Positions 4,227-22,147 are shown, counted from the first letter of the stretch. The stretch is DNA of 64,000 nucleotides from Candidatus Aminicenantales bacterium (GCA_049697115.1 JBAVVD010000048.1:18151-82150), one strand, 5' to 3'. Notes: a model not told the origin generated them from the letters alone. A program made the numbers and translations.

Positions 4227-5402
4227 CTATTCACTCCCATAGGGATGGACCACCAAGATTTCCACTCCTTTTTCGGCCGGTAAAATCGCCGCGCTGCCCA
4301 AAACCTCTGTGTAGGCTAAAAAGTCGACCGGTGCTCCAAAGCCAAAATCAAGATCTCGAATGGGTAAACGGGTTAAGTTGGTCACGATGATGCCGTGATG
4401 GGGATGTCTCAGATGGATTTCTTCGATGGCCGCCAGGCCTTTTTGCTGACGAAGATTCTCAAGCGTCTTTAATGAATTAAAAATAGTGTCATTTTTGATC
4501 TTTCCGACTGAAGACCGGACCAGAACGGCCAGGTCTCCCAGAGAGGCCCCTAAAAGGCCGTTGAAATCCACAGATGCCGTTGCAAAACAGAGCGCACAGC
4601 CGAAATAATTTTTTGGGAATCCGTCCAGGGCTTTTCGAAAATCAAATGGACAGGTGACAAATGTTTCAGGATTATCGTTATCTTTTTTCCACATCGGAAT
4701 ATATTTTTTCCAGAGCCAGGCCGTAATCACATCATTTTCCGAGAAAGGGACATTGTGCTCTTTTCTGGCTTCTTCCAGATAGGAACTGATCGTTTCCTCT
4801 GAAATTAAAATGCGTTCTTCATGAACAGGTTCATCCGGCGCTTGACTGCGCTTGCCCCCATAGAAAAGCCCGCATTCGGTATAAATGGCGTCCGGCGTAA
4901 CCGGCGCGGCACCCCGGAGCAAGTCCGACGACCACATGTCCCGCTGAAAACTGGGTTCCATTATGCGGTCCCCCCTGCACACGCGTGCCCAGCTTGAGAG
5001 AAAATGAAAATAACTGAAACCATCCGCTAATGCGTGCGACAGACTCACCGCCAAAACGGATCCATTGGGAGTTTGGGTTAACGCTATTTTTGTGAGGGGC
5101 TTTCCTTCGACAGAGCTTACAGGCGTGATGTATTCCTCAATCCTCCCGGGCTTTTCAAAAGCGGAATTGGATTCTCTCACATCAAATGTCAATCCATCTT
5201 CGGCCACATGAAATTCATAATCCTTTTCGGAAATTCTTTTTAATTGGCTCCGCAATAGAGGGAAATCATCAAGAACCTTATTCAGGCTGTTCCGCAGCAT
5301 ATCCGGATCAAGCCTGTTGAGATATAAAAAAGCAAACGTTATCGGCTGAGATCCAACCCCCGTAAAAACATATTCCACCGGACTGAGCGGAAGCGTCATC
5401 AT
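4227..5402 (-). CDS. HxxxDG-motif acyltransferase (condensation-domain / WS-DGAT / PapA5-like)
   Basis: The 391-aa product has the motif SHALADGFS (HxxxDG) at the position expected for CAT-like condensation-fold acyltransferases. The family assignment is tentative. Confidence 0.45.
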   Translation of the reverse strand: MMTLPLSPVEYVFTGVGSQPITFAFLYLNRLDPDMLRNSLNKVLDDFPLLRSQLKRISEKDYEFHVAEDGLTFDVRESNSAFEKPGRIEEYITPVSSVEGKPLTKIALTQTPNGSVLAVSLSHALADGFSYFHFLSSWARVCRGDRIMEPSFQRDMWSSDLLRGAAPVTPDAIYTECGLFYGGKRSQAPDEPVHEERILISEETISSYLEEARKEHNVPFSENDVITAWLWKKYIPMWKKDNDNPETFVTCPFDFRKALDGFPKNYFGCALCFATASVDFNGLLGASLGDLAVLVRSSVGKIKNDTIFNSLKTLENLRQQKGLAAIEEIHLRHPHHGIIVTNLTRLPIRDLDFGFGAPVDFLAYTEVLGSAAILPAEKGVEILVVHPYGSE

Positions 5403-5495
5403 CGTCCTGCCCTCTCATCATAAGAATATTTTGTAATTCCGTCTACATAATTTTAATACTACGCCTAATAACAGTTACATTTCTTAAGATGATAC

Positions 5496-5524
5496 TTGAC
5501 TATCCATAATCGATTGTATACACT
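5496..5524 (+). promoter_or_regulatory. sigma-70-like promoter of the RelE/RHH TA module
   Basis: TTGACT (5496-5501), a 17-nt spacer, then TACACT (5519-5524). An AAGAGG RBS sits 7 nt upstream of the ATG at 5553. Confidence 0.45.
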
Positions 5525-5552
5525 GTATTACAATGTCATTAAGAGGTGCTTT

Positions 5553-5771
5553 ATGAATACAGTAATTTCAGTCAGGCTTCCCAAAGAACTTGCCGAACAA
5601 CTCGACAATATAGCCAGGGAAACAGAGAGACCACGCTCTTTCATCATACAAAAAGCCTTAGAGTCCTACATCGAAGATTTCGCGGATCTTCAGGTGGCAC
5701 TCGACCGTCTCCACGATAAAAGTGATCCTATCATTTCCGGCAAAGAGCTGAGGAAATCTCTTGGTCTATAA
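5553..5771 (+). CDS. ribbon-helix-helix (CopG/RelB-like) antitoxin
   Basis: The product begins MNTVISVRLPKELAEQLDNIARETERPRSFIIQKALESYIE, an RHH fold signature. It overlaps the downstream RelE-like gene by 11 nt. The listed ORF starts at 5496, but the RBS-supported start is 5553. Confidence 0.7.
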   Translation: MNTVISVRLPKELAEQLDNIARETERPRSFIIQKALESYIEDFADLQVALDRLHDKSDPIISGKELRKSLGL

Positions 5772-6021
5772 TATTGTCTACAAGAAATCAGTCCAACGCG
5801 ATCTCAAAAAGCTGTCAAAATCAGAGGCTAATCGTATTCTCGATCAAATAGAACAGGAGCTTTCAAAGAAACCGGAGTCAAATCCAGCCCTCAAAGGTCA
5901 ATTTGCCGGGCTTCGCAAATTTCGAGTTGGGGAATACAGGGTTATCTACGCATTATTGAGAACAGATGTTCTTATCCTGAGAGTCGGACATCAAAAGAAT
6001 ATCTATAAAAGCGAAATCTAA
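5761..6021 (+). CDS. RelE/ParE-family type II toxin
   Basis: The 86-aa product contains VQRDLKKL...GEYRVIYALLRTDVLILRVGHQKNIY, a RelE/StbE pattern. It is translationally coupled to the upstream RHH antitoxin. Confidence 0.8.
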   Translation: MVYNIVYKKSVQRDLKKLSKSEANRILDQIEQELSKKPESNPALKGQFAGLRKFRVGEYRVIYALLRTDVLILRVGHQKNIYKSEI

Positions 6022-6102
6022 CGCCGGGCATAACCGGTTTTAAAATGCGGGGGCATGAAATGCCGAAGCATTTTAAAATCCGTGTTAATGCCTTTGTTAG
6101 AC
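6016..6102. other. attC-like recombination site (imperfect palindrome)
   Basis: The site reads ATCTAAC(G)...cggttttaaaatgcg...cgaagcattttaaaatccg...GTTAGAC. The R''-like 7-mer is at 6016-6022 and the R'-like GTTAGAC at 6096-6102. It overlaps the RelE stop codon. Confidence 0.5.
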
Positions 6103-6194
6103 CTGTTTTTTGCATTTTATGATACCAAGCCATGTATTAACTGGATCTATATACAGCTCATCACCAAAACCCAGTTCAGCTCTTACAAGTTGCC

Positions 6195-6644
6195 TCAGGT
6201 TATTAGAGCAACTATAGGATTATCCGTATTGCCTGTCACTATCTCCAAGAAACATTTGATTATCTCATTATTATCTATCGTAATTAACAATTCATTATGG
6301 CATTGGCGGGCCTCAACTTCGGTGGTATACTGCTTGTCAATATTTACAGGCCTTCCGTCATTATCTTTGTTTATGATATGATTAAATTGTGCGTCTACAA
6401 TCGTAAGCAGTTTCATACAAGCGTTATATTTTAACTCATATTTTTTCTCGTTAATACGATCAAGTTTGTTTAAATCTATTTTTACAGATTCGACCTTCTG
6501 AGTAATATCCCTTATGTCTTCCTTGGTAGCAAGATTTTCTCCTTTTTTCTTTAGATAACTTGTAAGTGCATTCTTAATCAGTAAGGTTGCTATCCATATT
6601 CCGATGACTATTACTATGTTCAATATCAAAATAATGTAGTCCAT
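6195..6644 (-). CDS. hypothetical membrane-anchored protein (AT-rich cassette ORF)
   Basis: The ORF is open to 6689, but the internal Met (MDYIILILNIVIVIGIWIATLLI, TM helix) avoids overlap with the attC-like site at 6660-6748. I did not recognise a family. Confidence 0.35.
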   Translation of the reverse strand: MDYIILILNIVIVIGIWIATLLIKNALTSYLKKKGENLATKEDIRDITQKVESVKIDLNKLDRINEKKYELKYNACMKLLTIVDAQFNHIINKDNDGRPVNIDKQYTTEVEARQCHNELLITIDNNEIIKCFLEIVTGNTDNPIVALIT

Positions 6645-6659
6645 ATATTCTCCTTGAAG

Positions 6660-6748
6660 GTCTAACGTAAAACTAAGCCGCCCCGCCACAGACCTTTGCC
6701 AAAAACAAACCAGCTTTATTCCGGGTTGGCTTGAGTGATTCGTTAGAT
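6660..6748. other. attC-like site
   Basis: GTCTAAC (6660-6666) pairs with GTTAGAT (6742-6748). The outer stems are cTAACGtaaaACTaAGCC and GGCTtgAGTgattCGTTAG, around a variable centre. Confidence 0.5.
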
Positions 6749-6760
6749 TAGCAGTTCATT

Positions 6761-7213
6761 TTAACAGAAGCCATTTTTTTCTAAGAATTTGATGCCCTTT
6801 TTCAGAGCTTCTTTATATGCATTGCTTTTCCACCAGTTACCATGGCTGTGAATAAGACCGTTTCTCTTTGCATTGAAGTTATTTAGATTACTGTAATCGT
6901 CATAGTTTATTGCGCCCAAGAAATGAGACCATTTGATAAGTTTGTAAGTAGACGTATTAGCTTTGTCTTTTCCATTTTTGCTATTCTCAATTTTGGCCCT
7001 GACCTCAGTTTCTTTTTGATCTTTAAAGGTCTTAACTATTTTATCCCACAATATAGTTTCGATAGCGAGTTGAGCATGCACGAATGCTTCAATAGTTTGA
7101 TTTTTTTTCATCATGTCTCTTATAGCATTGGCGCATTTGTATCTAACGACTTGCAATCTCTCGCCGCCCTCAGCTAAATCAGAAACAGCCATGTCTCTTT
7201 TCTTCTTGTTCAT
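6761..7213 (-). CDS. hypothetical protein with RNxxxH (HEPN-like Rx4-6H) motif
   Basis: The 150-aa, AT-rich product contains the C-terminal motif AKRNGLIHSHG. It is bounded by attC-like sites on both sides. Confidence 0.45.
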   Translation of the reverse strand: MNKKKRDMAVSDLAEGGERLQVVRYKCANAIRDMMKKNQTIEAFVHAQLAIETILWDKIVKTFKDQKETEVRAKIENSKNGKDKANTSTYKLIKWSHFLGAINYDDYSNLNNFNAKRNGLIHSHGNWWKSNAYKEALKKGIKFLEKNGFC

Positions 7214-7225
7214 GTCATTTTTTCA

Positions 7226-7282
7226 ATCTAATGTGCTGATCAGCGGCGGCTGTAAGCCGTCCGCTGGATTAGCTTGTTGGGT
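7226..7282. other. attC-like site
   Basis: The site reads CTAATG...ctgatcagcggcggc tgtaa gccgtccgctgg...ATTAGc ttGTTGGGT. The GTTGGGT core is at 7276-7282. Its stem sequence is related to the sites at 8471 and 11457. Confidence 0.45.
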
Positions 7283-7285
7283 CTG

Positions 7286-7771
7286 TTACTCGTTGTATCC
7301 GGCCTGTTCTAACCTCCTGAGTAAAAGAGACGCGAGTGAGAGGTGATCCAAACATTGATCCGGCGAGTCGCTTATGGAGTATTCATGACCCCTCGGATTG
7401 CGAATTGCCAACATGGCACCCGCGAAAACGAACTGGAAGCCTCTCTGTTCGTCTTGTTCACTTGTCGTGATGTTTGCATTGAGCACCACGCTTGGGGACT
7501 TTCCTCCGAATGCCTGCATCATGAGCTTGAAACCTGCTTCAGTTGAGGCCACAATCTTCTGAATTAGTTTGTCCAGATACTTGAATGCTTCGAATGTTGC
7601 CTGTGAGTAGTGGCCGTTGTCGAATAGTGTTCGGACGATTTGTGGCAATGAATCATGGATATCCCTCTGCTCAAAGGGGTGTTGTATCCCGAGATCGCGC
7701 GCTTCAACTTGAGTAAAACGATATGCTTGGCGGGCAATCCGCTCAAATCGATTCAGACGTGCGTCAGCCAT
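7286..7771 (-). CDS. Abi_C / TIGR02391-like protein (HEPN-like, RNxxxH)
   Basis: The 161-aa product contains GAMLAIRNPRGHE (R-x4-H). It overlaps the upstream gene by 8 nt, so the two form a two-gene cassette. Confidence 0.55.
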   Translation of the reverse strand: MADARLNRFERIARQAYRFTQVEARDLGIQHPFEQRDIHDSLPQIVRTLFDNGHYSQATFEAFKYLDKLIQKIVASTEAGFKLMMQAFGGKSPSVVLNANITTSEQDEQRGFQFVFAGAMLAIRNPRGHEYSISDSPDQCLDHLSLASLLLRRLEQAGYNE

Positions 7772-8444
7772 TCAGGAGATTCTCTCTTATGCTTTTGAAG
7801 ATGCGATCGTAGGTCTCTTGTGTTCCCTCGGCTGGCAGATTGATCTCAATACGCACCGTTAGCCCAACGTCGCGAACCTTCAGACCTCCATTAACACCTG
7901 TCTTTGGTTCTGATTTTTCCTTTGCCTTTGTGACCTCCAGAGGAGTCGCTTTTGCCTGCTTCTTCTTTGGCTTTTTGTCGGCGTCGGTTTTGGATGTGCC
8001 TTTGGCTTCTGGTAACTCATGATGTCCTGACAGGCCGCTCAACGTTAGAAAGGTGTTCGCTTGCCGCTTGCCAACGATAGCACTTGATTGGTCGTTCTGT
8101 CGGAAGAAAGTGATGAGTTGGGATGAATTAAGACCCCAGGTCTTCTCACCGTGGAGCGCAAAGAGCTCCTTGTAGCCCGTTGTTACAAGCTGCGCAAAAG
8201 CTTTCTGGAAGTCTTTATCCTGATGCAGAGAAAATATTTTGCCTGCAGCTTCCGTTTTGCCGCCATCCTTGTCGATGAGGCCAAGGAACCGAAGTGTACT
8301 GATTATGTATGTTTCATTCTTTGGGGCGTAGCCCAACTTCTTCAACGTGTCTGCCGTTAATGATGCCGGAAATGAGCTACGGAGATGGTTTATCACCTGG
8401 ATCAAACCACCAGCGCTTGTTATGTACGGATGTTTGTCCGCCAT
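7764..8444 (-). CDS. hypothetical protein, partner of the Abi_C-like gene (Lys-rich linker; possibly DUF5343-like)
   Basis: The 226-aa product has a lysine-rich low-complexity linker (KKPKKKQAKATPLEVTKAKEK) between two globular parts. It is co-oriented with and overlaps 7286..7771. Confidence 0.45.
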   Translation of the reverse strand: MADKHPYITSAGGLIQVINHLRSSFPASLTADTLKKLGYAPKNETYIISTLRFLGLIDKDGGKTEAAGKIFSLHQDKDFQKAFAQLVTTGYKELFALHGEKTWGLNSSQLITFFRQNDQSSAIVGKRQANTFLTLSGLSGHHELPEAKGTSKTDADKKPKKKQAKATPLEVTKAKEKSEPKTGVNGGLKVRDVGLTVRIEINLPAEGTQETYDRIFKSIRENLLNG

Positions 8445-8470
8445 GTCATCTTCCTCCTTCTTTCTTTTTG

Positions 8471-8531
8471 ACCTAACGTTCCGGTTCAGCGGCAGCGCTT
8501 CCGCGCCGTCTGCTGAAACCGATTGTTAGGC
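8471..8531. other. attC-like site
   Basis: ACCTAACG (8471-8478)...ggttcagcggcagcgc ttcc gcgccgtctgctgaaacc...GTTAGGC (8525-8531), about 61 bp, the classic 59-be size. It overlaps the 3' end of the DUF4365 ORF. Confidence 0.6.
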
Positions 8532-9445
8532 TTCGATATCAAATAGCTCTTTGAAAGGAATGAAATCATGTGCAGCGCTGCCTCAATCTGCTGGCGTCGA
8601 ACCAGTGGCAGCGCCTCTGCGGCGAAGGTTACCTCGATGCCCGCAAACTCGTATCCAGCAGGCAGTTCACGAAGCTTCGGATATGCCATGCAGGCGTGCG
8701 CCTCGAAGGCGGCGAGCCAGGCCCCAATCTCTTTGTGCGCATCGCTGCCGCTAGCCAACAATGAATGCAGTGAGCGTACAGCGGCGAGAGCGTCTCTATA
8801 CTGACACTGCTCGTGCAGCACGAAGAACAGCGCGTCGTGATCTCTGCGAAGCAGGTCAGCAGCATTGGGTTGATTCGGCGCATGGTCGAGTGCCACAAGA
8901 TTCTGCACAGCAACCGCAAGTGCCTCGACAGTGGGAATCAACCTTGCAGCCGAACGGGCCGCATCCAGCGCGGCCCTTAGATTACCATAGTGTCGCTTGA
9001 GGCTATCTTTGATCGCGTCCCATCCTTTCGCGTCAAGCACATTCTGCACTGGGATGCGGATAGACAACGTCTGACTGGCGCAGCTAATCACCTCAGCTGG
9101 TGATGCGAATAGGTCGAGATGCCACGAATACCAAGCACGTCCGTATCCGATGTCTACTGCGATAACAAGCGTAGGCTGGGGCGAAGCAAACCAATAGAAG
9201 ACGGATGAACGAGGTATGCCAGACTTGATAACCCAGCCATCGCGAATCGTTGGATTCTCGGTTGTCTTTACCTGCACCGAGAACTCAGTATTGTGCAATG
9301 GCGAGTGATCGCGAATAACAACCAAACCGTCCTTGCCCACATCACGGCGAGGGGGCTGCCATATCCAGCCTACTGGAAGCTGAGACGCGAACCAGAACTC
9401 CCCTTGGTCGCCGACAGCCCAGTTGCTTTGTCGTTTCGATTCCAT
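8486..9445 (-). CDS. DUF4365-like (PD-(D/E)xK nuclease-like) protein
   Basis: The N-terminal AVGDQGEFWFASQLPVGWIWQPPRRDVGKDGLVVI resembles the DUF4365 GE...GW...D.GiD signature. The gene is roughly 60% GC, far above its neighbours, which indicates foreign origin. Its start codon is only 13 nt from the core site at 9459-9465. Confidence 0.55.
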   Translation of the reverse strand: MESKRQSNWAVGDQGEFWFASQLPVGWIWQPPRRDVGKDGLVVIRDHSPLHNTEFSVQVKTTENPTIRDGWVIKSGIPRSSVFYWFASPQPTLVIAVDIGYGRAWYSWHLDLFASPAEVISCASQTLSIRIPVQNVLDAKGWDAIKDSLKRHYGNLRAALDAARSAARLIPTVEALAVAVQNLVALDHAPNQPNAADLLRRDHDALFFVLHEQCQYRDALAAVRSLHSLLASGSDAHKEIGAWLAAFEAHACMAYPKLRELPAGYEFAGIEVTFAAEALPLVRRQQIEAALHMISFLSKSYLISKPNNRFQQTARKRCR

Positions 9446-9458
9446 CGCTAGTTCGTAA

Positions 9459-9610
9459 GCCTAACTATTAATATACCGCATGCTGTATTTGATACAGATC
9501 TCCCTTCATTGACGTCGTATATTATGTGATTCCATCAAATATCCCCGCAAAGTTGCAGTATTATTTTAAAATTAACCATATTAAATTGCAAGTTGTATAT
9601 TTTACGACGG
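9459..9610 (+). repeat. attI-like/platform repeat copy A (about 150 bp, AT-rich)
   Basis: Copy A begins at the core GCCTAAC (9459-9465). It is about 80% identical to the reverse complement of 10435-10592 (copy B) and shares its first 50 bp with copy C at 19286. It contains a TTGCAA-N17-TAAAAT promoter on the minus strand. Confidence 0.7.
9563..9591 (-). promoter_or_regulatory. outward-facing sigma-70-like promoter inside repeat A (candidate cassette promoter)
   Basis: On the minus strand: TTGCAA (9586-9591), a 17-nt spacer, then TAAAAT (9563-9568). It reads toward the DUF4365 cassette run. Confidence 0.45.
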
Positions 9611-9682
9611 AATTATCCAGCCCGAAAGAGTTGCTTGAACAATAATCAAAAAAACCTCATCGAGTTTGAAGATTTTATAAAG

Positions 9683-10341
9683 CAGTTCCGATTGTCTTAA
9701 CTCGTGAAGAGGTTCATCGCCTCTTTTCCTTTCTTGAGGGGCCCTATCTTCTCATGTCTCAATTGCTCTATGGAAGCGGCCTCCATCTTCTGGAATGCAT
9801 ACAATTGAGAGTCAAGGACATCGATTTTGCCAATAATTTGCTAGTCATTCGGGCGGGAAAAGGAGAGAAAGACAGAACCACCATACTGGCGGACAAGATC
9901 AAGGAGTCTCTGAAAGCCCATTTGAAGAGAATCAAGAAGTTGCATGACCAGGATTTGGCAAAAGGATACAGGGGGACAACGCTTCCTGATGCCCTGGAGA
10001 AAAAATATCCGAATGCCAATAAAGAATGGGCCTGGCAATGGGTGTTCCCCTCGAAAAGCCTGGTGGTCCATCCTAGGAGCGGCAGGGTCATGCGTCATCA
10101 TATCCAACCCAGTACGCTTCAAAGGATGATAAAAGACGCTCTAAGAAAATCGAAGATTTCAAAACCTGCAAGCTGTCACACGCTGCGGCACAGTTTCGCT
10201 ACGCATCTTCTGGAAGCAGGGCATAATATCCGAACGATCCAGGAACTCATGGGCCATAAGAACGTGAATACCACGATGATATACACTCATGTGGCTCGAA
10301 AGAGTTATTCGGACATTTCTAGCCCTTTGGACAAACTGTAA
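9683..10341 (+). pseudogene. intI: integron integrase IntI remnant (5'-truncated; catalytic box I Arg replaced by His)
   Basis: The frame is open from the TGA at 9680. PIVLTREEVHRLFLFLEGPYLLMSQLLYGSGLHLLE...ALEKKYPNANKEWAWQWVFPS...HTLRHSFATHLLEAGHNIRTIQELMGHKNVNTTMIYTHV aligns with IntI1 from about residue 115 to the C-terminus, including the IntI-specific insertion. The first 100 or so codons are missing, and the upstream homologous sequence is interrupted by stops. GMRISE is replaced by GLHLLE. Confidence 0.8.
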
Positions 10342-10434
10342 GAAATGCCGAAAAGACTAAGCGGTTGTTTCCGAGATATCTCACGCTCCGTAAAACTTCC
10401 GCGGCTATCTGGTAAATAATCGCTCCTCTGATGG

Positions 10435-10592
10435 ATATTTGAGTCGTCAAATATACGACTTGCAATTTAATATGGATATTTTTAAGATAAGACTGCAATT
10501 TTGATGGGATATTTGATGGAATCACATAATATGCGACGTTAAAAAAGGAAGATTTGCATCAAATACAGCATGCTGTATAGTAATAGTTATGC
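10435..10592 (-). repeat. attI-like/platform repeat copy B (inverted copy of A)
   Basis: The reverse complement aligns with copy A over about 150 bp. Its outer end is GTTATGC (10586-10592), 42 nt before the ATG at 10634. Confidence 0.7.
10460..10488 (+). promoter_or_regulatory. outward-facing sigma-70-like promoter inside repeat B
   Basis: TTGCAA (10460-10465), a 17-nt spacer, then TAAGAT (10483-10488). It reads toward the right-hand cassette run. Confidence 0.45.
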
Positions 10593-10633
10593 GTCCCCAA
10601 AATAATATGCTTCATTAATTTGGAGGTTGAGAT

Positions 10634-11443
10634 ATGTCTTTTAACATTCAAAGAATATTAGACTCAGTTGTAAAGACTCTAGATCGAATTATTAATATGC
10701 TTGATATAGCTTTGAACGCATTTTACAAATTTTTAGACTATCTCATAAAAACGTTTGAAGAAGTTGCAAAAAAAATACTTGATCTACTTACTAATCTACT
10801 TAGGGTTGTTTTTTATATTCTCCCTTTTATTTTTATGATTATCATTGGTTCTCAAAAGAATTGGTTTTGGATGTCAATTACTGGATGGGCAGTAATCATA
10901 TTTGTTCTCGTTCTTTTCTTCAGAGACTTTATTGCCGAGATTAAGGGTGATAATAAAACTTCAAGCCAAAATATGCCGATTCAATCCAAAAGAGCATTTA
11001 TTGTTATTCTCATACTAAATGTGTTATTAATCTCGTATTCTTTTATTTTTTATTTCGTTGGCATTAGCCCTGAAAAATATATTTTGGAATTTATTACAGA
11101 AGCCCCAGCAAATGAGAAAGCTAATGAGATTCGAGAGGCAGAATATTTGAATATAATTTCGGCAAAAAATAATACTGATTTTTCCTCTACTATATCCACT
11201 ATCTCAAATCTTGGATTGTTAAAATCATCCAAGGCATCTCCAATACTCATTGAAAAACTGAATGGTTTTATAGCAAAAGAATTGAATGAAAACGAAACAA
11301 AAGAAGTAACTGCAATTATTGAAGCCCTTGAAAATATAGGTGGAGAGGATGCTTGCAATTCATTAGTTAAATTTGAGGTAAACTGTAGCAACAATGATTT
11401 AGTTCTTAAAGCAAGAAAAGCGGCTAACAAAATATGTCGTTAA
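10634..11443 (+). CDS. hypothetical membrane protein with C-terminal HEAT-like repeats
   Basis: The 269-aa product is strongly AT-rich. It has TM helices in the middle and ends with AIIEALENIGGEDACNSLVKF...LVLKARKAANKI, resembling HEAT/PBS-lyase repeats. A GGAGG RBS is present. Confidence 0.45.
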   Translation: MSFNIQRILDSVVKTLDRIINMLDIALNAFYKFLDYLIKTFEEVAKKILDLLTNLLRVVFYILPFIFMIIIGSQKNWFWMSITGWAVIIFVLVLFFRDFIAEIKGDNKTSSQNMPIQSKRAFIVILILNVLLISYSFIFYFVGISPEKYILEFITEAPANEKANEIREAEYLNIISAKNNTDFSSTISTISNLGLLKSSKASPILIEKLNGFIAKELNENETKEVTAIIEALENIGGEDACNSLVKFEVNCSNNDLVLKARKAANKICR

Positions 11444-11456
11444 ATATTATTAAAAC

Positions 11457-14904: not shown

Positions 14905-15033
14905 GGTAATAAGAAACTTTCTCATGAGATTCTGTGTATTAAACTAATAATGTAATAACACTTATGGCTTCAATAAACTGATTTGAACTTCTTCTTTCTT
15001 GAAAAGTTACTCTTGTTAGGTGTTTTTGTTTGA

Positions 15034-15236: not shown

Positions 15237-15258
15237 CGGATTGATGGACTTGTTAGCC
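15199..15258. other. attC-like site
   Basis: GCCTAACG...cacggttttaccgtg...GTTAGCC (15252-15258). Confidence 0.45.
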
Positions 15259-15262
15259 ACTG

Positions 15263-15970
15263 TTATTCCTCAATGGACCCTCCTTTTTCCCGCAAGTGTC
15301 TACGGAACGTATAGGTTGGATCCTTGGATCGCTTCTTTAAGTATTCGTCAAACCGGAGTTGGTCACGAAGCTTTCTTCCAGCCCGTATTTCCTCCGCCTG
15401 TCGTCGCTCCGTTTGCCAAATGATGCGTGCAGTAGAGATAAGTTCATCGGCATGTTGAATTGGGGCGAAAAGAACTCCGTCACCGTCAGCAAAAACAATG
15501 TCCTCCTTTGATACATGGAAATCGCCAAAAAGAGCGGTCGTGAGTGCATCGGCATCGGGTGAATCAAGCCGCTGGGGACCTGTCGGGCAAGTGCCGTAAC
15601 TGAAGATTGGGAAACCAATATGGTTAAGCTCCGCCGTATCTCTGTGACAGCCCCAGACAACGATTCCTGCCAATCCACTCGCTTGAGCCTCCAATGCCGT
15701 TAAATCTCCAATACACCCTTCATCCATTCTTCCTCTATTATCTATGACAAGAATGTCTCCTTGTTGTGCGGTCCCCATGGCTTCAAGAAAGATATCCACG
15801 CTGCCGTAGTGTTTCACGGGCAAGGCTCTGCCAGCAATACGGCTCCCCGCAGGTAATGTACGAATGCCTGGAGGCGCGACGCGAGTGGGCAAGCCCAAAC
15901 GCAAGCAAGCATCCGCTATGAGCGGGGTTGAGAGATCTGATAAAGCACTATTCAAGTCTTGGTTTTTCAT
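15263..15970 (-). CDS. RraA-family protein (RNase E regulator / HMG-CHA aldolase-like)
   Basis: The 235-aa product contains STPLIADACLRLG...GDILVIDNRG...VVWGCHRDT...GFPIFSYGTCP, typical RraA/MenG family blocks. Confidence 0.7.
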   Translation of the reverse strand: MKNQDLNSALSDLSTPLIADACLRLGLPTRVAPPGIRTLPAGSRIAGRALPVKHYGSVDIFLEAMGTAQQGDILVIDNRGRMDEGCIGDLTALEAQASGLAGIVVWGCHRDTAELNHIGFPIFSYGTCPTGPQRLDSPDADALTTALFGDFHVSKEDIVFADGDGVLFAPIQHADELISTARIIWQTERRQAEEIRAGRKLRDQLRFDEYLKKRSKDPTYTFRRHLREKGGSIEE

Positions 15971-16062
15971 TCAAAGCTCCGTTGTGACCAACTGCAAGGC
16001 TCAGGGGCGCAAGGGCTTACTCGCATCCGCATACCAAAAACGCACAGAAACAGATGCAGTGT

Positions 16063-16120
16063 GTCTAACATTCATGTTTTCAAACATCGCCTTTGCATCC
16101 ACCGTAAACGATTGTTAGGC
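16063..16120. other. attC-like site
   Basis: GTCTAAC (16063-16069)...ATGTTTTCAAACAT...GTTAGGC (16114-16120), 58 bp. Confidence 0.55.
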
Positions 16121-16121
16121 A

Positions 16122-17342
16122 TTATTTTGATTTAACATTCGTCGCTATTTCAATTTCTGAAAATTCTGTCGCCTGTTTTATTAAGTCAATATCTGGTTGT
16201 TCCATAAGATATTTGTCAAAGAAAGCCAAGACGAGCACATTCATGATCTCGACGGTTTTTTTCCCATTGATAGATCCTAGAAGAAATTTGACTGCCGAAA
16301 TAGGATAGACGGAATAGTCAGATAAATTGTAGTGATCTGAATCTTTTACACTTAAGGAGTAACAATCCATCTTGGATTTACTTGTGAATATTTTACCGTA
16401 CCCTAAAAACCGTTTACTATTCAGAAACATGGTAGGTGTTTGAATTTCCCTCTCCAATGATGAACCGATTAATCCGCCATCCATATTGACGCATGCCTTG
16501 ATTCTTTTATCTGAAAGACAAATTTCACTTGATGCAATCCCCCCCATCGACATTCCGAATACCCCAATTCTATCAAGGTTCAATTTTTCTTTAAATATTT
16601 TGTTTTCATTGTTCATACCCTCTAATTGATCCATGAAAAATGAAATATCTTCTGCCCAATACCTTGGACTTTCTGTTAGAGCAGTGGGCAAAACATTGTT
16701 TATATCCACAAAAACTTGTCTACGCTCCTCGTCATTGCCGGCTTGATACATTTTTCGCATCAATTCCATGGCTTTGGGGTTTGTCATCTCTTGCATAATT
16801 TTCTGAAACCTAAGACTTTTCATGTCAATATAGATGAGCCGCCCATCTGGAAATGATGAAAATTTACATTCATAATGATGAGAAATACTAAAAACGATAT
16901 AGCCATGGCTTGCCAATTCTTCCATCAAGATTGAATTTTGTGAATAATGCTCACCCCACCCGTGAGAAAATATCAATATTGGGTATTTGTTTTCTTTGGA
17001 TGACACAGGTACATCACGACTTGAGTTTGTTTTCAAGTCCTTGTATATCTCTGGAAATTGAAGATACCTCATGACAAATTCTGCTTCGGCCTTCAGAAAA
17101 TAGGGTTCAGGATTGGATTTATGATCTGAGGGATACCATGCCTTCACTGTAATTTCTCTGTGACTTTCCTGATTGTTGTCAAATAATTCTTTTCGATTAT
17201 CATCAATAAAACTGAGGTAAGTTATTCCGACAAAATGTTTCCCCGTAGGTTTTGGTAATGTGTTGGTTTGTATTTGACCGGAATTACTTTGACCGCAATT
17301 AAATATCAGGCTGCAAAGAAATAAGATAAACATACGTCTCAT
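16122..17342 (-). CDS. alpha/beta-hydrolase lipoprotein (PAF-acetylhydrolase-like)
   Basis: The product has a lipobox (LFLCSLIFNCG), an oxyanion-hole-like FSHGWG and a GMSMGG nucleophile elbow. The gene is AT-rich. Confidence 0.5.
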   Translation of the reverse strand: MRRMFILFLCSLIFNCGQSNSGQIQTNTLPKPTGKHFVGITYLSFIDDNRKELFDNNQESHREITVKAWYPSDHKSNPEPYFLKAEAEFVMRYLQFPEIYKDLKTNSSRDVPVSSKENKYPILIFSHGWGEHYSQNSILMEELASHGYIVFSISHHYECKFSSFPDGRLIYIDMKSLRFQKIMQEMTNPKAMELMRKMYQAGNDEERRQVFVDINNVLPTALTESPRYWAEDISFFMDQLEGMNNENKIFKEKLNLDRIGVFGMSMGGIASSEICLSDKRIKACVNMDGGLIGSSLEREIQTPTMFLNSKRFLGYGKIFTSKSKMDCYSLSVKDSDHYNLSDYSVYPISAVKFLLGSINGKKTVEIMNVLVLAFFDKYLMEQPDIDLIKQATEFSEIEIATNVKSK

Positions 17343-17426
17343 TTTGTTTTTCCTTTCAAATTAAAACCTGACGATTTAAGCCATCGGGGGAAATAAGCCG
17401 TCCGTTGGAGTGGTTTGTGTTTCGCT

Positions 17427-17789
17427 CTATATTTCTTCAAATTCCTTTAGTGTCTTTTTAGTTATTATATCACCTGTATGTTTTATTTTCGATGATTCTA
17501 AAACGACCATCCACGTTTCCTCATCAGCGAATGGCCTATGCTTTTTCCCTTTTGGGATGACCGCCAATTCTCCTGGATTTAATTCAATGATTCCTTCTTC
17601 TAATTCAATTCTGAATTTACCTTTTATTACATAAAACAATTCATCTTCATCTTTATGGTCATGCCAATCCAATTCACCGTTGACTTTAACAATTTTCACA
17701 TCATAGTTATCAACCCGACTAATGACTTTCGGGCTCCATAATTCATCAAACTTTCTGAATTTATCCTCGAGGTTTATTACATTTATCAT
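17427..17789 (-). CDS. cupin-domain protein
   Basis: The 120-aa product contains HDHKDEDELFYVIKGKFRIELEEGIIELNPGELAVIPKGKKHR, a cupin_2 pattern. Confidence 0.65.
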   Translation of the reverse strand: MINVINLEDKFRKFDELWSPKVISRVDNYDVKIVKVNGELDWHDHKDEDELFYVIKGKFRIELEEGIIELNPGELAVIPKGKKHRPFADEETWMVVLESSKIKHTGDIITKKTLKEFEEI

Positions 17790-17811
17790 AGTATACCTTT
17801 CATCTTATTGC

Positions 17812-17901
17812 ACATAACGGCGAAGCTCACCGGCGGCGAAACGTAGCGGAGAGAACCGAAAAGCGAAGCTTTTTGGCGTCCGATTGACCGATTTGTTAGC
17901 G
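17812..17901. other. attC-like site
   Basis: ACATAAC (17812-17818)...GC-rich imperfect palindrome...GTTAGCG (17895-17901). Confidence 0.4.
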
Positions 17902-18342
17902 CTGCTCAATAATTTTCCTTTTGACTTCTTGAACTTCGCCGTAGACTTGAAGTGTCCTCATTACTAGAGGTTTTGTCCTGGTCTTCAAGTCCGAAAGGCG
18001 AGTATACTCGTTTTTTATATATTCTTTGTCAGACTGCTCTTCAAAGGTTATGATGTAAGCCTGATGCACTAGCTTGTTTCTCTCTTTTTGGAGAGGTCGA
18101 AGCTTTTTTACTAAGTCATGATCGGCATTAATCTTTACGAATCGATCCAAGAGCTTTCCAAGTGGTTCATTTTCGACATCCTTCCAACCATATTTGAACG
18201 GCACGACTCCCTTGACTTTAGTAGCGATGATTAAATAGGTCTCCGCTATATACAGCTTTAATCCTAACTCAATGAATTGAAAGTCAAGAAGTATTTTCTG
18301 AACTAAATCCAAATATTCAGTGATTGATCTATCTTTGACCAT
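17896..18342 (-). CDS. hypothetical protein with RNxxxH (HEPN-like) motif
   Basis: The 148-aa, AT-rich product contains QKERNKLVHQAY. It is bounded by attC-like sites. Confidence 0.4.
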   Translation of the reverse strand: MVKDRSITEYLDLVQKILLDFQFIELGLKLYIAETYLIIATKVKGVVPFKYGWKDVENEPLGKLLDRFVKINADHDLVKKLRPLQKERNKLVHQAYIITFEEQSDKEYIKNEYTRLSDLKTRTKPLVMRTLQVYGEVQEVKRKIIEQR

Positions 18343-18365
18343 AATAAGGCACCCACTTCTTAGGT

Positions 18366-18424
18366 GCTAACGTGACAAGTGAGGCATGCATGTTACAGCA
18401 TCGCCTCGACTTGGTTTGTTAGCG
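18366..18424. other. attC-like site
   Basis: GCTAACG (18366-18372)...catgcatg...GTTAGCG (18418-18424). Confidence 0.5.
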
Positions 18425-19273
18425 GATTATGTTGTAATGTCTTCGCCACTGCCTGCGTGGCTCCAGTCGCACCCCTTCAATATACCGATTGAGGCGGTAC
18501 ATATCTCGCCCAGTTCTTTCAACAAGGGTTGGGCGTGCGACTCTATCTCGGATTATGTTGTAGCAACGCGCATAAAATTCCTTGGTCTCGTCTGGCCAAT
18601 TGTTGCAATATCCATTTTCCACTTCGATGAAACGTCTTATACAGTAAATCACAAGATCTGAGAACTGTATCATCGGGTTCCTGCGTAAGTCAATGGCATA
18701 GCTGAACTCGACAATCCACTTCACACGGTGGGTGGCAGCGCCACCGAAGCGGCGCTCCCGCATAATTCGCCCAATGTCATTGTGAAACTGCTCTTTTCTA
18801 TCCAGTATAATCATTCCTCGGGCTGACTGTCCGAGTCGCACTTTGACAAACCAGTTGATATACGTCACCAGATAGTCAAATCCAACAAGGTACGGTCGTT
18901 TCGGGTTATACGTCAATTTCATGCCAAGCGGTATATCTCTCATTCTTCGTTTGTCTATCGCTAAGTAGTGTACGTGGTGGGCTCGGTTAGGGAGTAGACC
19001 CAACACGTCCATGCAGAGTTGGTTTCTTCGGTCTCTGCATTCTCCTTGAAATGGACCGTTACCCTGTGGGCTCAGGAGTTCATCTGCGTGAAGTTCGAAG
19101 TCCGCCGGGAGATTGCCACCGAAGAAACGCTCGAGGCAGTGTTTCAATGCTTCGTGTGTTGCATTCCATCCTTCATCCCGAACGCTGACCCCGCCGATAA
19201 CCATAACTGGCTGATCGGGGTCATCAAGATTAGAACCCGTATCACCCGATTCGTCGATATAGTAGAAGTGCAT
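18419..19273 (-). CDS. DUF3800-family protein
   Basis: The N-terminal MHFYYIDESGDTGS matches the DUF3800 YIDESG signature. The 284-aa product is the first gene read outward from repeat copy C. Confidence 0.55.
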   Translation of the reverse strand: MHFYYIDESGDTGSNLDDPDQPVMVIGGVSVRDEGWNATHEALKHCLERFFGGNLPADFELHADELLSPQGNGPFQGECRDRRNQLCMDVLGLLPNRAHHVHYLAIDKRRMRDIPLGMKLTYNPKRPYLVGFDYLVTYINWFVKVRLGQSARGMIILDRKEQFHNDIGRIMRERRFGGAATHRVKWIVEFSYAIDLRRNPMIQFSDLVIYCIRRFIEVENGYCNNWPDETKEFYARCYNIIRDRVARPTLVERTGRDMYRLNRYIEGVRLEPRRQWRRHYNIIR

Positions 19274-19285
19274 TTCGTTCTTCCT

Positions 19286-19450
19286 CGCTAACTATTAATA
19301 TATTACATGCAGTAAAATGTGAAAAAAACTATTGAAAAAACGTCTTTTCATTGAGGAAGCCATCGATCAACACCTTAAGAATGCTGTAATGTTGTAATAT
19401 ATCTCATGTTATATTACAAGCTGTATATCTAATTTTTCCAATATTCGGCA
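19286..19450 (+). repeat. attI-like/platform repeat copy C (diverged)
   Basis: CGCTAACtattaatatattacatgcagta matches the first 35 bp of copy A, with patchy similarity after that. It abuts the start of the DUF3800 gene with an AGGAAG RBS. Confidence 0.5.
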
Positions 19451-19546
19451 AATCCTATGAATCATAAAGAGGGTGCGGATAAATATTTTGAGATGTATAA
19501 TATAATAATTGTTAGCGCCTATTAAACTTAAACGAAAGAATTAATA

Positions 19547-19717
19547 ATGGCTAAACAAAGAAAACTTTTTTTAACCAATTTGGCTGTAGGAATACTTGGT
19601 ATTTTCGTTGGAATTGAAAATTTGTTTCGATGGTTCTATGATGGATACTATATTCGTAATCTAATTATCGGCTTAATTTGTACTGCGGAATGCGATCAAA
19701 AAAGGTTGGGTTTTTGA
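19547..19717 (+). CDS. small hypothetical membrane protein (56 aa)
   Basis: MAKQRKLFLTNLAVGILGIFVGIENLFRWFYDGYYIRNLIIGLICTAECDQKRLGF has one predicted TM helix. It is below the ORF-track size cutoff, so the call is speculative. Confidence 0.2.
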   Translation: MAKQRKLFLTNLAVGILGIFVGIENLFRWFYDGYYIRNLIIGLICTAECDQKRLGF

Positions 19718-19798
19718 GTGTGCAGCCTTCGGGCCCTGATACCTGATACCCGACCATTAAATCTCTGAAAAATTCAGCTTCAAAGGAGTTTTAAGAAG

Positions 19799-20935
19799 AT
19801 GAAAAGATCAATCCTCGTCGCAACGACTTCCTTACTTTTGATCGGCCATTTGTTTGGAATGACTGATGAAAACACAGCCGGGAAAATTCCTTTTAAAAAA
19901 ATCGCTTATTTTATCTTGGTCACAACAAAAATCAACGATTCCAAGAATGATTACAACTTTATCATTGATACGGGAGGCGTTGCTCTGATTGATAAAGCGG
20001 TCGTTCAAGAACTCGGTCTCAAACAACGCGGACCGATGGCAAAAATAACAACTCTCAATTTGTCTGGATATCAAATAGAAAATGTCTTTTGCTTTACAAC
20101 CTTTGATTTTAACATTTTTAGACAATTAGGGACTCCAATACATGGGATTATCGGGTCAAATCTTATGGAAAGGTTTAAGGTGACGATTGACTTCCAATCA
20201 TGCTCTATCATTTTTTCAACGGATACCACATCCTTGACACCGCCTGATAATGGTATCTTTTTTACCTTTCGGAATCATCCGGTCAATAACGCTCCAATAA
20301 TCAAATTTAAAGTCAATCAGAAAATCATTGAAGGAATGATCGATACGGGTCAGCCTTACCCTGTGGTTTTACCGCTCAAAGATTTTGAACAATATGAAAA
20401 GTCCAACAATCCCGTTTCAATTCGATCGAAAGGTCTAATGATAAAATGGCCACAGACGACTCCGCAATATAATTATTTGACAAGATTAAAATCATGTGAA
20501 TTTGGAAGTTTAAAAATTACGGATGCCCTGGGCATCTTTGGAGAACTGCCTCCCCTGCTCTCAATGCCATTAATTGGTACAGATTTATTATCTCAATTTA
20601 AAATAATTATTAACTATCCCAAGGATGAAATGCTGTTCATTCCAAATCCAGATATTCATTTTGAGAACAATCAATTTTCTCTTGGTTTAAATCTAAATCT
20701 ATCAGAAAAAGATGAAATTTGGGTAGAGGGTGTATGGGAAAATTCTCCTGCGGATAAAGCCAATATACAAGTTGGAGATCAAGTTATTGCATTCAATTCG
20801 AAAAAAGTCACTCCTGAAAATTTGATCGAACTGATGGAAATGATGAAAGATGACCATATAGAATCGATACATTTAGAAATAAAAAATCAAAACGGAATAA
20901 GAAAATTGAAATTAAATAAAACAATGCTGTTTTAA
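19799..20935 (+). CDS. secreted pepsin-like (clan AA) aspartic protease with C-terminal PDZ domain
   Basis: The product has a signal peptide and two DTG motifs (IIDTGGVALI and MIDTGQPYPV), indicating a single-chain pseudo-dimer. The C-terminal PDZ-like stretch reads GVWENSPADKANIQVGDQVIAFN. The gene is AT-rich. Confidence 0.55.
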   Translation: MKRSILVATTSLLLIGHLFGMTDENTAGKIPFKKIAYFILVTTKINDSKNDYNFIIDTGGVALIDKAVVQELGLKQRGPMAKITTLNLSGYQIENVFCFTTFDFNIFRQLGTPIHGIIGSNLMERFKVTIDFQSCSIIFSTDTTSLTPPDNGIFFTFRNHPVNNAPIIKFKVNQKIIEGMIDTGQPYPVVLPLKDFEQYEKSNNPVSIRSKGLMIKWPQTTPQYNYLTRLKSCEFGSLKITDALGIFGELPPLLSMPLIGTDLLSQFKIIINYPKDEMLFIPNPDIHFENNQFSLGLNLNLSEKDEIWVEGVWENSPADKANIQVGDQVIAFNSKKVTPENLIELMEMMKDDHIESIHLEIKNQNGIRKLKLNKTMLF

Positions 20936-21029
20936 CGATTTGCGAAAGGAATGAATATTATACATTCATGTATTTAATATTTTGTGTAATCATTGCATGA
21001 ACACGGATTGAAATGCGTTCCATCAATTC

Positions 21030-21096
21030 CACGTTTATATGTTTTGTGGAATCACATCAATCGGGACGTAACTCTCGGCATTTCAACCGGTTATGC
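21030..21096 (-). repeat. attI-like/platform repeat copy D (partial, B orientation)
   Basis: atatgttttgtggaatcacatcaatcgggacgt matches copy B (atatttgatggaatcacataatatgcgacgt). It ends at GTTATGC (21090-21096), the same core as copy B, 40 nt before the VOC gene. Confidence 0.45.
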
Positions 21097-21135
21097 AAAA
21101 CGTAAGGCGGCACGAAGAGGGAAGAGAAAGGAACA

Positions 21136-21453
21136 ATGAAAAGATATCATCACATCGGAATTCCAACCGAAACAGCCCAGGCTGGGGAGACATACCTTGC
21201 GGAGTACAAGGCGCACTGCACGGATCACAAGCGCAATCCCTTCGGAATTCAGTGGATGCGGTTTGAGACTGACAGTCCGCTTCCGGCGCTCGTAAAAACG
21301 CTTTCGCATGTCGCATTCGAGGTGGATGATCTCGAACGCGCCCTCGCAGGACACGAGGTCATCATTGAGCCCAACAGTCCATCCGCGGGTGTTGTCGTGG
21401 CGTTCATTGTGTGCGACGGGGCGCCGGTGGAGTTCCTGCAATTCTCGAAGTAG
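21136..21453 (+). CDS. VOC / glyoxalase-bleomycin-resistance family protein
   Basis: The 105-aa product has the small betaabbb-module pattern (HIGIPT...HVAFEVDDLERA...VEFLQF). The gene is GC-rich. Confidence 0.6.
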   Translation: MKRYHHIGIPTETAQAGETYLAEYKAHCTDHKRNPFGIQWMRFETDSPLPALVKTLSHVAFEVDDLERALAGHEVIIEPNSPSAGVVVAFIVCDGAPVEFLQFSK

Positions 21454-21586
21454 TCATGTATCGCGGCGATCGGACTAACAACCGGCACGGCCCGACGGCC
21501 GGTGCGGTCATGCGCCTTTCATGTGCATGGTGAGCGCCCGTCCTGTCCGCCCGTCAGCCGGGACTTTATGCCACAGGAGAAATCGG

Positions 21587-22099
21587 ATGACAATTCGCAA
21601 GGAATCATCAAAAGACATTGATGCCATTCACCGCCTCAATGAGCAGGCATTCGGACAATCGCAGGAAGCCGACATTGTGGACAAACTCCGCAATCATTGC
21701 CGGGAAATTCTCTCGCTTGTTGCGCTTCAGGAAGACAAAATAGTCGGACATATACTTTTCAGTCCGGCCGCTATTGAAGGGAATCACGGCATCATCAAAG
21801 GCATGGGCCTGGCTCCTATGGCCGTCATTCCGGAGCATCAACGTCAAGGGATCGGCTCCGCACTGGTCAGAGAGGGAATTCAAATTTTAAAAGAATCGGA
21901 GTGTGCATTCATAATCGTGCTTGGCCATCCGGAATATTACCCTCGCTTTGGATTCAAACCGGCATCCAGATATGGAATCAAAAGTCAGTGGGACGGTGTG
22001 CCCGATGATGTGTTTATGATATCGTGGTTAAATGAATCAGCGGCCAAAGGTGTCTCGGGCGTCGCCAAATATAGAGAGGAATTTAATGACACAATGTAA
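21587..22099 (+). CDS. GNAT-family N-acetyltransferase
   Basis: The acetyl-CoA-binding motif HQRQGIGSALV is present. The listed ORF starts at 21521, and an internal Met at 21587 is more likely the start. Confidence 0.7.
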   Translation: MTIRKESSKDIDAIHRLNEQAFGQSQEADIVDKLRNHCREILSLVALQEDKIVGHILFSPAAIEGNHGIIKGMGLAPMAVIPEHQRQGIGSALVREGIQILKESECAFIIVLGHPEYYPRFGFKPASRYGIKSQWDGVPDDVFMISWLNESAAKGVSGVAKYREEFNDTM

Positions 22100-22147
22100 A
22101 TGCACGACGAATCGCTCAAGAGAGATGCGCCAAAAAGCCGCGGCGAT

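Follow-up and report, generated by a model that had tools for sequence, protein, structure and literature searches.

Probable twin-attI integron platforms, with cassette arrays on both sides of the integrase gene, in Candidatus Aminicenantales

Introduction

A 64,000-nt stretch of DNA from Candidatus Aminicenantales bacterium (the window, to which all coordinates refer unless a comparison contig or locus, designated by an L-number, is named) contains, with a probability that we put at about 0.82, a cluster of twin-attI integron platforms between 5.5 and 22.1 kb, in which the integrase gene intI lies between two inverted attI sites and cassette arrays extend outward on both sides. The segment is a real but locally disabled chromosomal integron, and we show its anatomy, the conservation of that anatomy across the clade of related integrases (IntI) and the gain of cassettes at both arms in relatives. 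The twin-arm design is a trait of this IntI clade and not a product of decay, because related contigs also show it around intI genes that are intact. To our knowledge, integrons have always been described as one integrase, one attI site and one array.

Results

Paired inverted arms bracket the integrase remnant

The intI remnant of the window is bracketed by 161-nt inverted repeats, at 9459-9619 and 10432-10592, that are 86% complementary. An arm profile built from other contigs, with the window excluded, matches a left arm, L1, at 9459-9625 on the minus strand (E = 1e-46; crossover G9465|TT on that strand, the bar marking the crossover) and a right arm, R1, at 10419-10592 on the plus strand (E = 3e-47; crossover G10586|TT), whose outer ends read ...TATATTAATAG|TTAGGC (left arm, minus-strand reading) and ...TATAGTAATAG|TTATGC (right arm). 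Neighbouring attC sites are all on the minus strand left of intI (8471-8531, 7226-7282, 6660-6748 and 6016-6102) and all on the plus strand right of it (11457-11515, 11937-12032 and 12948-13009), and on both sides the R'' core of the first cassette is the exact complement of its arm junction. As the inverted repeats end at G|TT and attC polarity is outward on both sides, we read the arms as two inverted attI sites with one array each; this locus thus departs from the canonical architecture of one attI and one array per intI. In the arm consensus the form TGCAAT-N6-8-GGATAWT occurs twice, and these repeats may serve as accessory binding sites. R1 also carries an outward promoter-like site, TTTGCA-17-TATAGT (10553-10581), ending 5 nt before G|TT, and an outward cassette promoter in each arm, reading into the first cassette, is plausible.

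The arms are conserved and gain cassettes in relatives

Among the proteins closest to the remnant are full-length IntI of 373-375 aa with 84-90% identity and many truncated forms. Inverted repeats of 130-240 nt flank intI in about 25 non-redundant contigs whose IntI is at least 72% identical, and paired arms surround intact intI genes (L001, L085/L087, L089, L090, L091, L095/L002, L096, L104 and others) as well as decayed ones; the arm profile places an arm on nearly every side of intI that a contig reaches. All arms share a conserved body and a near-invariant outer end, ...TTTGTATCAAATAAAGCATGTTGTATATTAATAG|TT. Similarity from arm to arm and from contig to contig ends exactly at G|TT, beyond which the DNA differs and usually presents a ribosome-binding site (RBS) and an ATG within 20-60 nt. 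The pattern that marks an attI site, sequence beside intI that is conserved up to G|TT and then gives way to variable cassettes, was found for both arms across these roughly 25 contigs.

The presence or absence of single cassettes, a comparison that a preliminary description of this DNA had proposed, was observed with breakpoints at G|TT in relatives and not in the window itself. The left arrays of L132 and L085 are 99.9% identical save for one extra 770-nt unit in L132 exactly at the left arm (...TAATAG|TTGGACGG ... CGTCCAAC ... GCCG|TTAGCGGCACG), whose R'' matches its own start and which is followed by the first cassette of L085. At the right arm, L159 has an extra 830-nt cassette relative to L157, and in the right arrays of L085 and L132 the cassettes nearest the arm differ before the arrays rejoin at G|TTATAAGC. 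These breakpoints indicate that both arms are active as cassette insertion sites in the relatives.

The two-sided layout is equally visible in the polarity of genes and recombination sites. Among the non-redundant contigs, coding DNA to the left of intI comprises 56.3 kb on the minus strand vs 12.3 kb on the plus strand (82% minus), and that to the right 54.0 kb on the plus strand vs 9.1 kb on the minus strand (86% plus). The strand of attC sites located with a window-trained model likewise follows the side of intI (47 minus and 8 plus on the left, 38 plus and 5 minus on the right; Fisher p = 6e-14), with exceptions mostly kilobases off and adjoining other arms. An arm is 0.85-0.99 identical to same-side arms of other contigs vs 0.74-0.84 to its own partner; this dates the arm duplication far back and implies long maintenance of both copies. 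Tandem platforms and solo arms also occur elsewhere (L085, L153, L157 and L161). A second IntI type of 329 aa, 45% identical and located on the same contigs (L002 15129-16612 and L094 8027-9510), has its own inverted arms, a 168-nt pair ending ...GCTGTATAATATATG|TT, and two distantly related IntI lineages of one host therefore possess the twin design. No significant match to these type-2 arms was found in the window.

Comparison with other integrons delimits the trait. We found no flanking inverted repeats in about 70 other IntI loci, comprising reference genomes and metagenome contigs from outside the clade, and none in relatives at 63-70% IntI identity (L165-L167), so the trait is bounded. 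A control attC search covered 67 loci, 66 of them in bacterial genomes from many phyla; the 35 loci with attC matches were all one-sided, with 22 arrays upstream of and divergent from intI (left), 13 downstream and co-oriented (right) and none on both sides. A partial, more distant intI in L154 is flanked by a 135-nt inverted repeat (633-766 and 2051-2183, 96% identity), which consists of repeated ATGGGCGCTGTCCCTATTTAATCC units and is unrelated to the attI arms described here. The cassettes of the intact platform in L001 (1379-4213 and 6028-10690) are defence-like, and include a 944-aa TIR-WD40 protein, SLATT, several ThsB-like TIR proteins and a TGT/QueC-like set.

The palindromes are attC sites with mobile-cassette structure

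The preliminary description had taken the imperfect palindromes of this region for attC-like integron sites and had proposed to test them with the attC covariance model of IntegronFinder; covariance models that we built ourselves supported that identification. A strict motif-plus-fold detector found 7 sites in the region vs 0-5 per shuffle and overlooked sites whose R box is unpaired in array context, and it was replaced by covariance models. The first model was made from nine window sites with the structure supplied by hand, since RNAalifold on a MAFFT alignment of the nine sites gave a near-empty consensus because MAFFT misaligns the stems. This model retrieved 118 attC sites in related contigs, and the second model (R2) was built solely from those sites, with zero window sequence. 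Scanned over the entire window with filters off, R2 returned 12 sites with E < 0.01 and 2 weak ones (16063-16120 and 13561-13618), all within 6016-21571; its best match elsewhere in the 64 kb had E = 1.7. R2 also finds 175 attC sites beside unrelated intI genes at the 67 control loci, and it is therefore a general attC detector. An Rfam scan of the window returned just two tRNAs and no attC-type match; the tRNA genes (minus strand, 46443-46516 and 46583-46657, about 70 nt apart, 67-69 bits) are unrelated to the integron.

The window sites are imperfect palindromes, as attC sites of about 55-140 nt are, with R'' (RYYYAAC) and R' (GTTRRRY) cores at their ends and a consistent hairpin polarity (5' RYCTAAC-AA ... 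CG-TTAGRY 3') which we take to be that of the top strand of attC(aadA7). Across 98 distinct related sites, in an alignment fitted to the model and hence favouring the structure, 83% of stem cells are paired vs 65% in shuffles, 267 cells show two-sided changes vs 102 in shuffles (0 of 500 shuffles reach 267), and the covariation score is 0.436 vs 0.04-0.08 for slid partners. When the bottom strand is folded, with the strand taken from the model, more unpaired bases fall on the R''-L'' arm at 50 of 60 informative related sites and at 7 of 7 informative window sites; this placement may reflect canonical attC geometry, although the identities of the extrahelical bases differ from the canonical G and T.

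Integron cassettes carry a permutation signature, and it is evident here. In related contigs, the better partner for R'' is the R' that borders its own cassette on the 5' side, and not the R' within the same site (28 vs 6, p = 2e-4); in the window the own-boundary R' is better at 10 of 12 sites and tied at 2, and six of these matches are perfect at 7/7 (cassettes A1, A4, B1, B2, E1 and C1, including junctions 10586-10592 and 14040-14046). This signature is directional and therefore fixes array orientation independently of gene strands. The attC sites are genuine, and the region is integron DNA with mobile-cassette structure.

The integrase remnant is disabled

The window intI had been called dead and truncated in the preliminary description, and so it proves. 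The remnant (9682-10341, plus strand) scores 323.4 bits against the integron-integrase family TIGR02249 (cut-off 265), covering profile positions 98-315 only; it is without about 158 N-terminal residues, and an in-frame stop at 9667-9669 lies just upstream of its open reading frame (ORF). In the alignment it retains the IntI-specific additional-domain segment ALEKKYPNANKEWAWQWVFPS, and its first catalytic Arg has become His (GLHLLE vs GLRL in 16 of 16 aligned relatives). The remnant is thus neither complete nor intact in its catalytic residues and is, to judge from these changes, catalytically inactive.

The truncation itself has a history. Its junction, including the derived ATAAAGCA, is common to the window (9640-9700) and L003 (1250-1290)/L004, and in a tree of catalytic domains those of the window and of L003/L004 fall in different sub-clades among full-length genes. 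This pattern, one junction shared by alleles scattered across the tree, suggests that the truncated alleles arose by recombination or gene conversion between platform copies rather than by selection on a small integrase; alternatively, selection may be acting on the truncated protein. We considered a functional mini-IntI, as suggested by the dN/dS (omega) of the truncated gene, which at 0.10 equals that of full-length pairs (window 9688-10338 vs L003/L004 and full-length relatives), and rejected this value as evidence, the truncated alleles being scattered among full-length ones and yet sharing a single junction.

N-terminal intI deletions are also recurrent: L097, L100 and L168 (5930-6000) each have their own junction, the left breakpoints of all such deletions lie within about 25 nt of each other around GAATTTGAAGATTT, and every one of them leaves a catalytic-domain ORF of about 195 aa open. 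In L001 the intI frame is open for about 65 codons (4412-4615) upstream of the called ATG at 4616, and this extension (..PPEKARFYVYWVDRFLKYY..) adds another stretch of PF13495, the SAM-like N-terminal domain; IntI proteins of the clade may have a duplicated N-terminal domain and a non-ATG start.

Platforms and cassettes of the window

The segment lies between core-looking genes assigned with Pfam, as were the cassette genes below: methylmalonyl-CoA mutase (2576-4180) and an acyltransferase (4227-5402) on the left, and MGMT (22148-22630) and ComEC (22730-25141) on the right. The preliminary description had remarked on alternating guanine-plus-cytosine (GC) content and on cargo typical of cassettes; over 5.4-22.1 kb, GC ranges from 0.29 to 0.62 in 400-nt windows, and Pfam agrees with the gene set it had listed. 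The cargo consists of short, varied genes, including two RHH/ParE toxin-antitoxin (TA) modules (5553-6021 and 13050-13566), Hypoth_Ymh with DUF5343, DUF4365, DUF3800, SnoaL, RraA-like, cupin, GNAT, two alpha/beta hydrolases, a PEGA protein and an Asp-protease/PDZ protein.

The first platform, P1, would consist of L1, the intI remnant and R1 (9459-10592), with array A on the minus strand (four cassettes and a TA module) and array B on the plus strand (three cassettes). Reading outward along array A, the first cassette encodes a DUF4365 protein (8486-9445, minus) and has attC A1 (8471-8531, minus; R2 65.2 bits, E = 1e-13, against 10.9 bits on the plus strand), whose R'' GCCTAAC matches the attI junction GTTAGGC at 7/7. 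It is followed by a two-gene cassette (7286-8444, minus; Hypoth_Ymh 7286-7771 and DUF5343 7764-8444) with attC A2 (7226-7282, minus; 43.4 bits, E = 2e-8), by an ORF with no Pfam match (6761-7213, minus) with attC A3 (6660-6748, minus; 30.1 bits, E = 4e-5) and by another ORF with no Pfam match (6195-6689, minus) with attC A4 (6016-6102, minus; 38.1 bits, E = 4.5e-7), whose R'' GTCTAAC matches the 5' R' of its own cassette at 7/7. At the far end of array A, and reversed relative to it, are an RHH antitoxin (5553-5771; RHH_1) and a ParE toxin (5761-6021; ParE_toxin) on the plus strand.

Array B opens with a membrane-protein-like ORF of GC 0.30 (10634-11443, plus) and attC B1 (11457-11515, plus; 60.0 bits, E = 2e-12), whose R'' GCATAAC complements the R1 junction GTTATGC (10586-10592) exactly. 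An ORF at 11547-11927 (plus) with attC B2 (11937-12032, plus; 34 bits, E = 5e-6; own-boundary match 7/7) and an alpha/beta hydrolase ORF at 12076-12940 (plus) with attC B3 (12948-13009, plus; 40.7 bits, E = 1e-7; R' GTCAGCT) complete it. The second RHH/ParE module (13050-13566, plus) stands between two converging attC sites. Both of these have the atypical R' G|TCAGCT (13003-13009 and 13561-13567), and the TA segment is thus palindromic-ended (TCAGCTGC...GCAGCTGA).

The second of the converging sites is weak attC E1 (13561-13618, minus; R2 13.3 bits, E = 0.56; 41.8 bits with the window-trained model), belonging to a SnoaL-like cassette ORF (13613-14023, minus), and its R'' GGCTAAC is complementary at 7/7 to the core at 14040-14046. 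This core is part of what we tentatively read as the outer end of a third left-type arm, L3 (14040-14067, minus; a 26-nt match of 85% identity, E = 0.01, to the outer end of the left arm of L168). The remnant of a third platform would have one cassette on each side, the SnoaL cassette on the left and, on the right, the plus-oriented attC C7 (14848-14904; 43 bits, E = 3e-8), which we read as its right-hand array; a PEGA-domain ORF (14214-14609) is on the minus strand.

P2 would be a platform that has lost its intI, comprising the diverged arm L2 (19286-19450, minus; arm profile E = 1e-7 for the match 19450-19290; outer end ...CATGTAATATATTAATAG|TTAGCG) with array C on the minus strand (about seven cassettes) and array D on the plus strand. 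Array C, as we read it, runs from 19285 down to about 15.0 kb and carries, in order, DUF3800, an uncharacterised protein, cupin, hydrolase, RraA and a transporter fragment. The DUF3800 cassette beside L2 (18419-19273, minus) has attC C2 (18365-18424, minus; 27.6 bits, E = 2e-4), with an R'' CGCTAAC that matches the L2 junction at 7/7. Beyond it lie an ORF (17896-18342, minus) and attC C3 (17812-17901, minus; 29.7 bits, E = 5e-5), the cupin ORF (17427-17789, minus) with a degenerate palindrome after it (17366-17422), a PAF-acetylhydrolase-like alpha/beta hydrolase (16122-17342, minus) with weak attC C5 (16063-16120, minus; 14.3 bits, E = 0.31), and an RraA-like ORF (15263-15970, minus) with attC C6 (15199-15258, minus; 49.3 bits, E = 8e-10), downstream of which is the short transporter-fragment cassette (15016-15198). 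Part of attC A2 (7241-7277) and part of the post-cupin palindrome (17382-17418) are 76% identical over 37 nt, despite belonging to the arrays of different platforms.

The plus-strand units of array D would be preceded by two tentative features, a possible right-arm outer end matching L2 (19490-19517, plus; ...TATAATATAATAATTG|TTAGCG; a weak 16-nt match, E = 0.44) and a fragment resembling the inner block of a right arm (21039-21096, plus; ..GGAATCACATCAATCGGGACGT..), which ends G|TTATGC and forms a direct repeat with 10509-10539 (74%). The units themselves are a small ORF (19547-19717, plus) with an Asp-protease/PDZ protein (19799-20935, plus), an ORF (21136-21453, plus) with attC D1 (21473-21571, plus; 20.8 bits, E = 0.008) and, last before the core genes, a GNAT acetyltransferase (21588-22099, plus).

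Discussion

Our findings suggest that intI in this clade sits between two copies of an attI site of about 170 nt, in inverted orientation and each ending at a G|TT crossover, and that IntI would insert folded attC cassettes at either copy, so that two arrays grow outward, the left on the strand opposite intI and the right on the intI strand. As in established integrons, IntI would bind each double-stranded arm and recombine at G|TT with the folded bottom strand of attC, and replication would resolve the product. Neighbouring platforms would then have arrays that converge, at about 13.0-13.6 kb (the ParE/RHH module) and at about 14.9-15.0 kb. Each change of orientation in the segment is, on this reading, a platform or a meeting point of the arrays of adjacent platforms, which recasts the switches of cassette direction noted in the preliminary description. 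At 6.0-6.2 kb the TA genes are indeed reversed, but attC 6016-6102 is on the minus strand like the rest of the array; at 13.57-13.62 kb the arrays do converge, but this is built into the design and is no anomaly. Further real changes, at 9.46-10.59, about 14.04, about 14.9 and 19.3-19.5 kb, had been left out, and the 161-nt inverted repeats had gone unnoticed.

Several points weigh against the twin-attI interpretation. Binding and recombination by IntI at the arms are extrapolated here from what is known of other integrons. All relatives are metagenome contigs, and the outer segment of about 35 nt is near-identical between arm copies, so that short-read assemblers could join the wrong array to an arm; the orientation of cassettes relative to the arm would still be kept. 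A few contigs within the clade have a single arm (L088, L099-L103, L112/L113 and L131). The promoter match is weak, at 9/12 in R1 and lower, about 8/12, in the clade consensus TTTGTA-17-TATATT. The attC models are home-made, the second derived from matches of the first. Only short matches identify the third platform (E = 0.01 over 26 nt), the right-hand end of P2 and the arm-like fragment at 21039-21096.

The alternative that retains most credit, though we consider it improbable, is that one ordinary array has decayed here and that the repeats and switches are scars of a one-off inversion or duplication in this genome. The truncated and mutated intI, the degeneracy of several attC sites and the rearranged look of the 14.0-15.0 kb stretch and of the 21.04-kb fragment are all in keeping with such decay. 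The same paired arms nevertheless surround intact intI in many independent contigs, left and right arms form separate conserved lineages that are no recent copies of each other, and close relatives gain cassettes at both arms. The preliminary description had favoured a similar view, in which the region is one decayed array or a CALIN (cluster of attC sites lacking integron-integrases, with at least two attC sites and no intI near them) and its switches of direction are unusual; the twin arms around intact intI in relatives contradict it.

Only marginally less credible is that the inverted repeats are the terminal repeats of an intI-carrying transposable element inserted into existing arrays. 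A module bounded by inverted repeats of 130-240 nt does look transposon-like, and the solo arms and tandem platforms of the window and of L085, L153, L157 and L161 could reflect mobility. We found no target-site duplication at the flanks, however, and the DNA that flanks the module on either side invariably begins as a cassette read outward (TTRRRY, then RBS and ATG). Removal of such an element would leave two divergent arrays without an attI, and single cassettes are gained exactly at the G|TT of each arm, as at an attI site.

An assembly artefact arising from repeats in metagenome graphs is very improbable. All of the data do come from metagenome assemblies, and the outer segments of the arms are near-identical, but the two arms of any one contig share only 74-84% identity, too little for an assembler to collapse them. 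Assemblies of many samples at NCBI, ENA and JGI show the arrangement repeatedly, and in the window it is enclosed by core genes, left and right, within a contig of 91.6 kb. That the palindromes, GC-rich hairpins between genes, are ordinary terminators or repetitive extragenic palindromic (REP)-like elements can practically be dismissed, as they have no intrinsic-terminator T-tract, carry RYYYAAC and GTTRRRY cores, display the cassette permutation signature and are confined to 6.0-21.6 kb of the 64 kb, and the same model detects arrays beside unrelated intI in 35 other genomes.

The twin-attI platforms share much with canonical integrons such as class 1 integrons and the sedentary chromosomal integron of Vibrio cholerae, including the integron-specific insertion in IntI (TIGR02249), RYYYAAC/GTTRRRY cores in the attC hairpins, the G|TT crossover, promoterless cassettes of varied GC, and TA cassettes in chromosomal arrays. 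They differ in having two inverted attI sites, one on each side of intI, and two outward arrays, in place of the single attI upstream of intI and the single array of the canonical type. In integrons of the "inverted integron-integrase" type, found in the Treponema denticola group, the array is downstream only (Cury et al., 2016; PMC4889954). That arrangement, downstream of intI and on the same strand, corresponds to the right-hand array here and to the arrays of the 13 co-oriented control loci; the twin-attI type adds the classical upstream divergent array. The window resembles a CALIN in having no functional intI nearby and arrays dependent on an integrase in trans, but it keeps an intI remnant above the TIGR02249 cut-off and intact attI arms and is a disabled complete integron rather than an orphan group of attC sites. 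Any recent cassette turnover in the window would thus require IntI supplied in trans and encoded elsewhere in the genome, because the sole intI of the window is inactive.

Two further systems place inverted sequences around recombination modules. Inverted repeats bracket an intI-containing module in Tn402-type class 1 integrons and in those flanked by miniature inverted-repeat transposable elements, but there they are transposition ends outside the whole integron, cassettes included, whereas the repeats described here separate intI from the cassettes, stop at the recombination core and serve as cassette insertion points. Invertible switches such as the fim switch and Rci shufflons likewise have a tyrosine recombinase gene with its own sites inverted; unlike them, the contigs studied here include no pair with the same flanks and a flipped module. 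Comparison of all outward flanks for a flipped intI module returned same-side matches only, plus one 82% match to a similar cassette.

The IntegronFinder paper describes just divergent and "inverted integrase" arrangements. The full-text literature that we could search, which leaves most subscription journals uncovered, was examined for integrons with twin or inverted attI sites, for bidirectional ones, for cassette arrays to either side of intI and for integrons of Aminicenantes; we found no description of the twin-attI architecture, and it is apparently undescribed so far.

It is tempting to ask whether twin inverted attI sites are more than two insertion points, whether through the opposite replication polarity of their arrays, through IntI-driven inversions or both, an idea that we advance tentatively and regard as unlikely. 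The array whose attC bottom strands lie on the lagging-strand template would turn over quickly, and the other would serve as a stable archive. IntI could also recombine the two inverted attI sites, flipping the integrase module, or recombine an attI with an attC of the opposite array, inverting blocks of cassettes; such inversions would explain why solo arms and tandem platforms are found scattered. The long arrays of the window are those on the minus strand, and from 1 to 64000 nearly all 4-kb bins have a slightly negative GC skew (mean about -0.04). By the usual rule, should it hold here, the plus strand would be the lagging one, and the attC bottom strands of the long minus-strand arrays would then be on the leading-strand template.

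The picture of one attI and one array changes with a natural lineage in which two attI sites work and each heads an outward array. Twin attI sites double the number of promoter-proximal "first cassette" positions and place two arrays in opposite replication polarity within one element; array-inversion experiments have reportedly been done in Vibrio cholerae, and the twin design is a natural version of them. Annotation pipelines that assume one array per intI would split such loci or mislabel them, for instance by reporting a complete integron and a separate CALIN. The arms of about 170 nt, together with their cognate IntI, offer compact parts for testing attI recognition and strand choice, and these platforms extend well-documented integron biology to Aminicenantia, an uncultured lineage of sediments.

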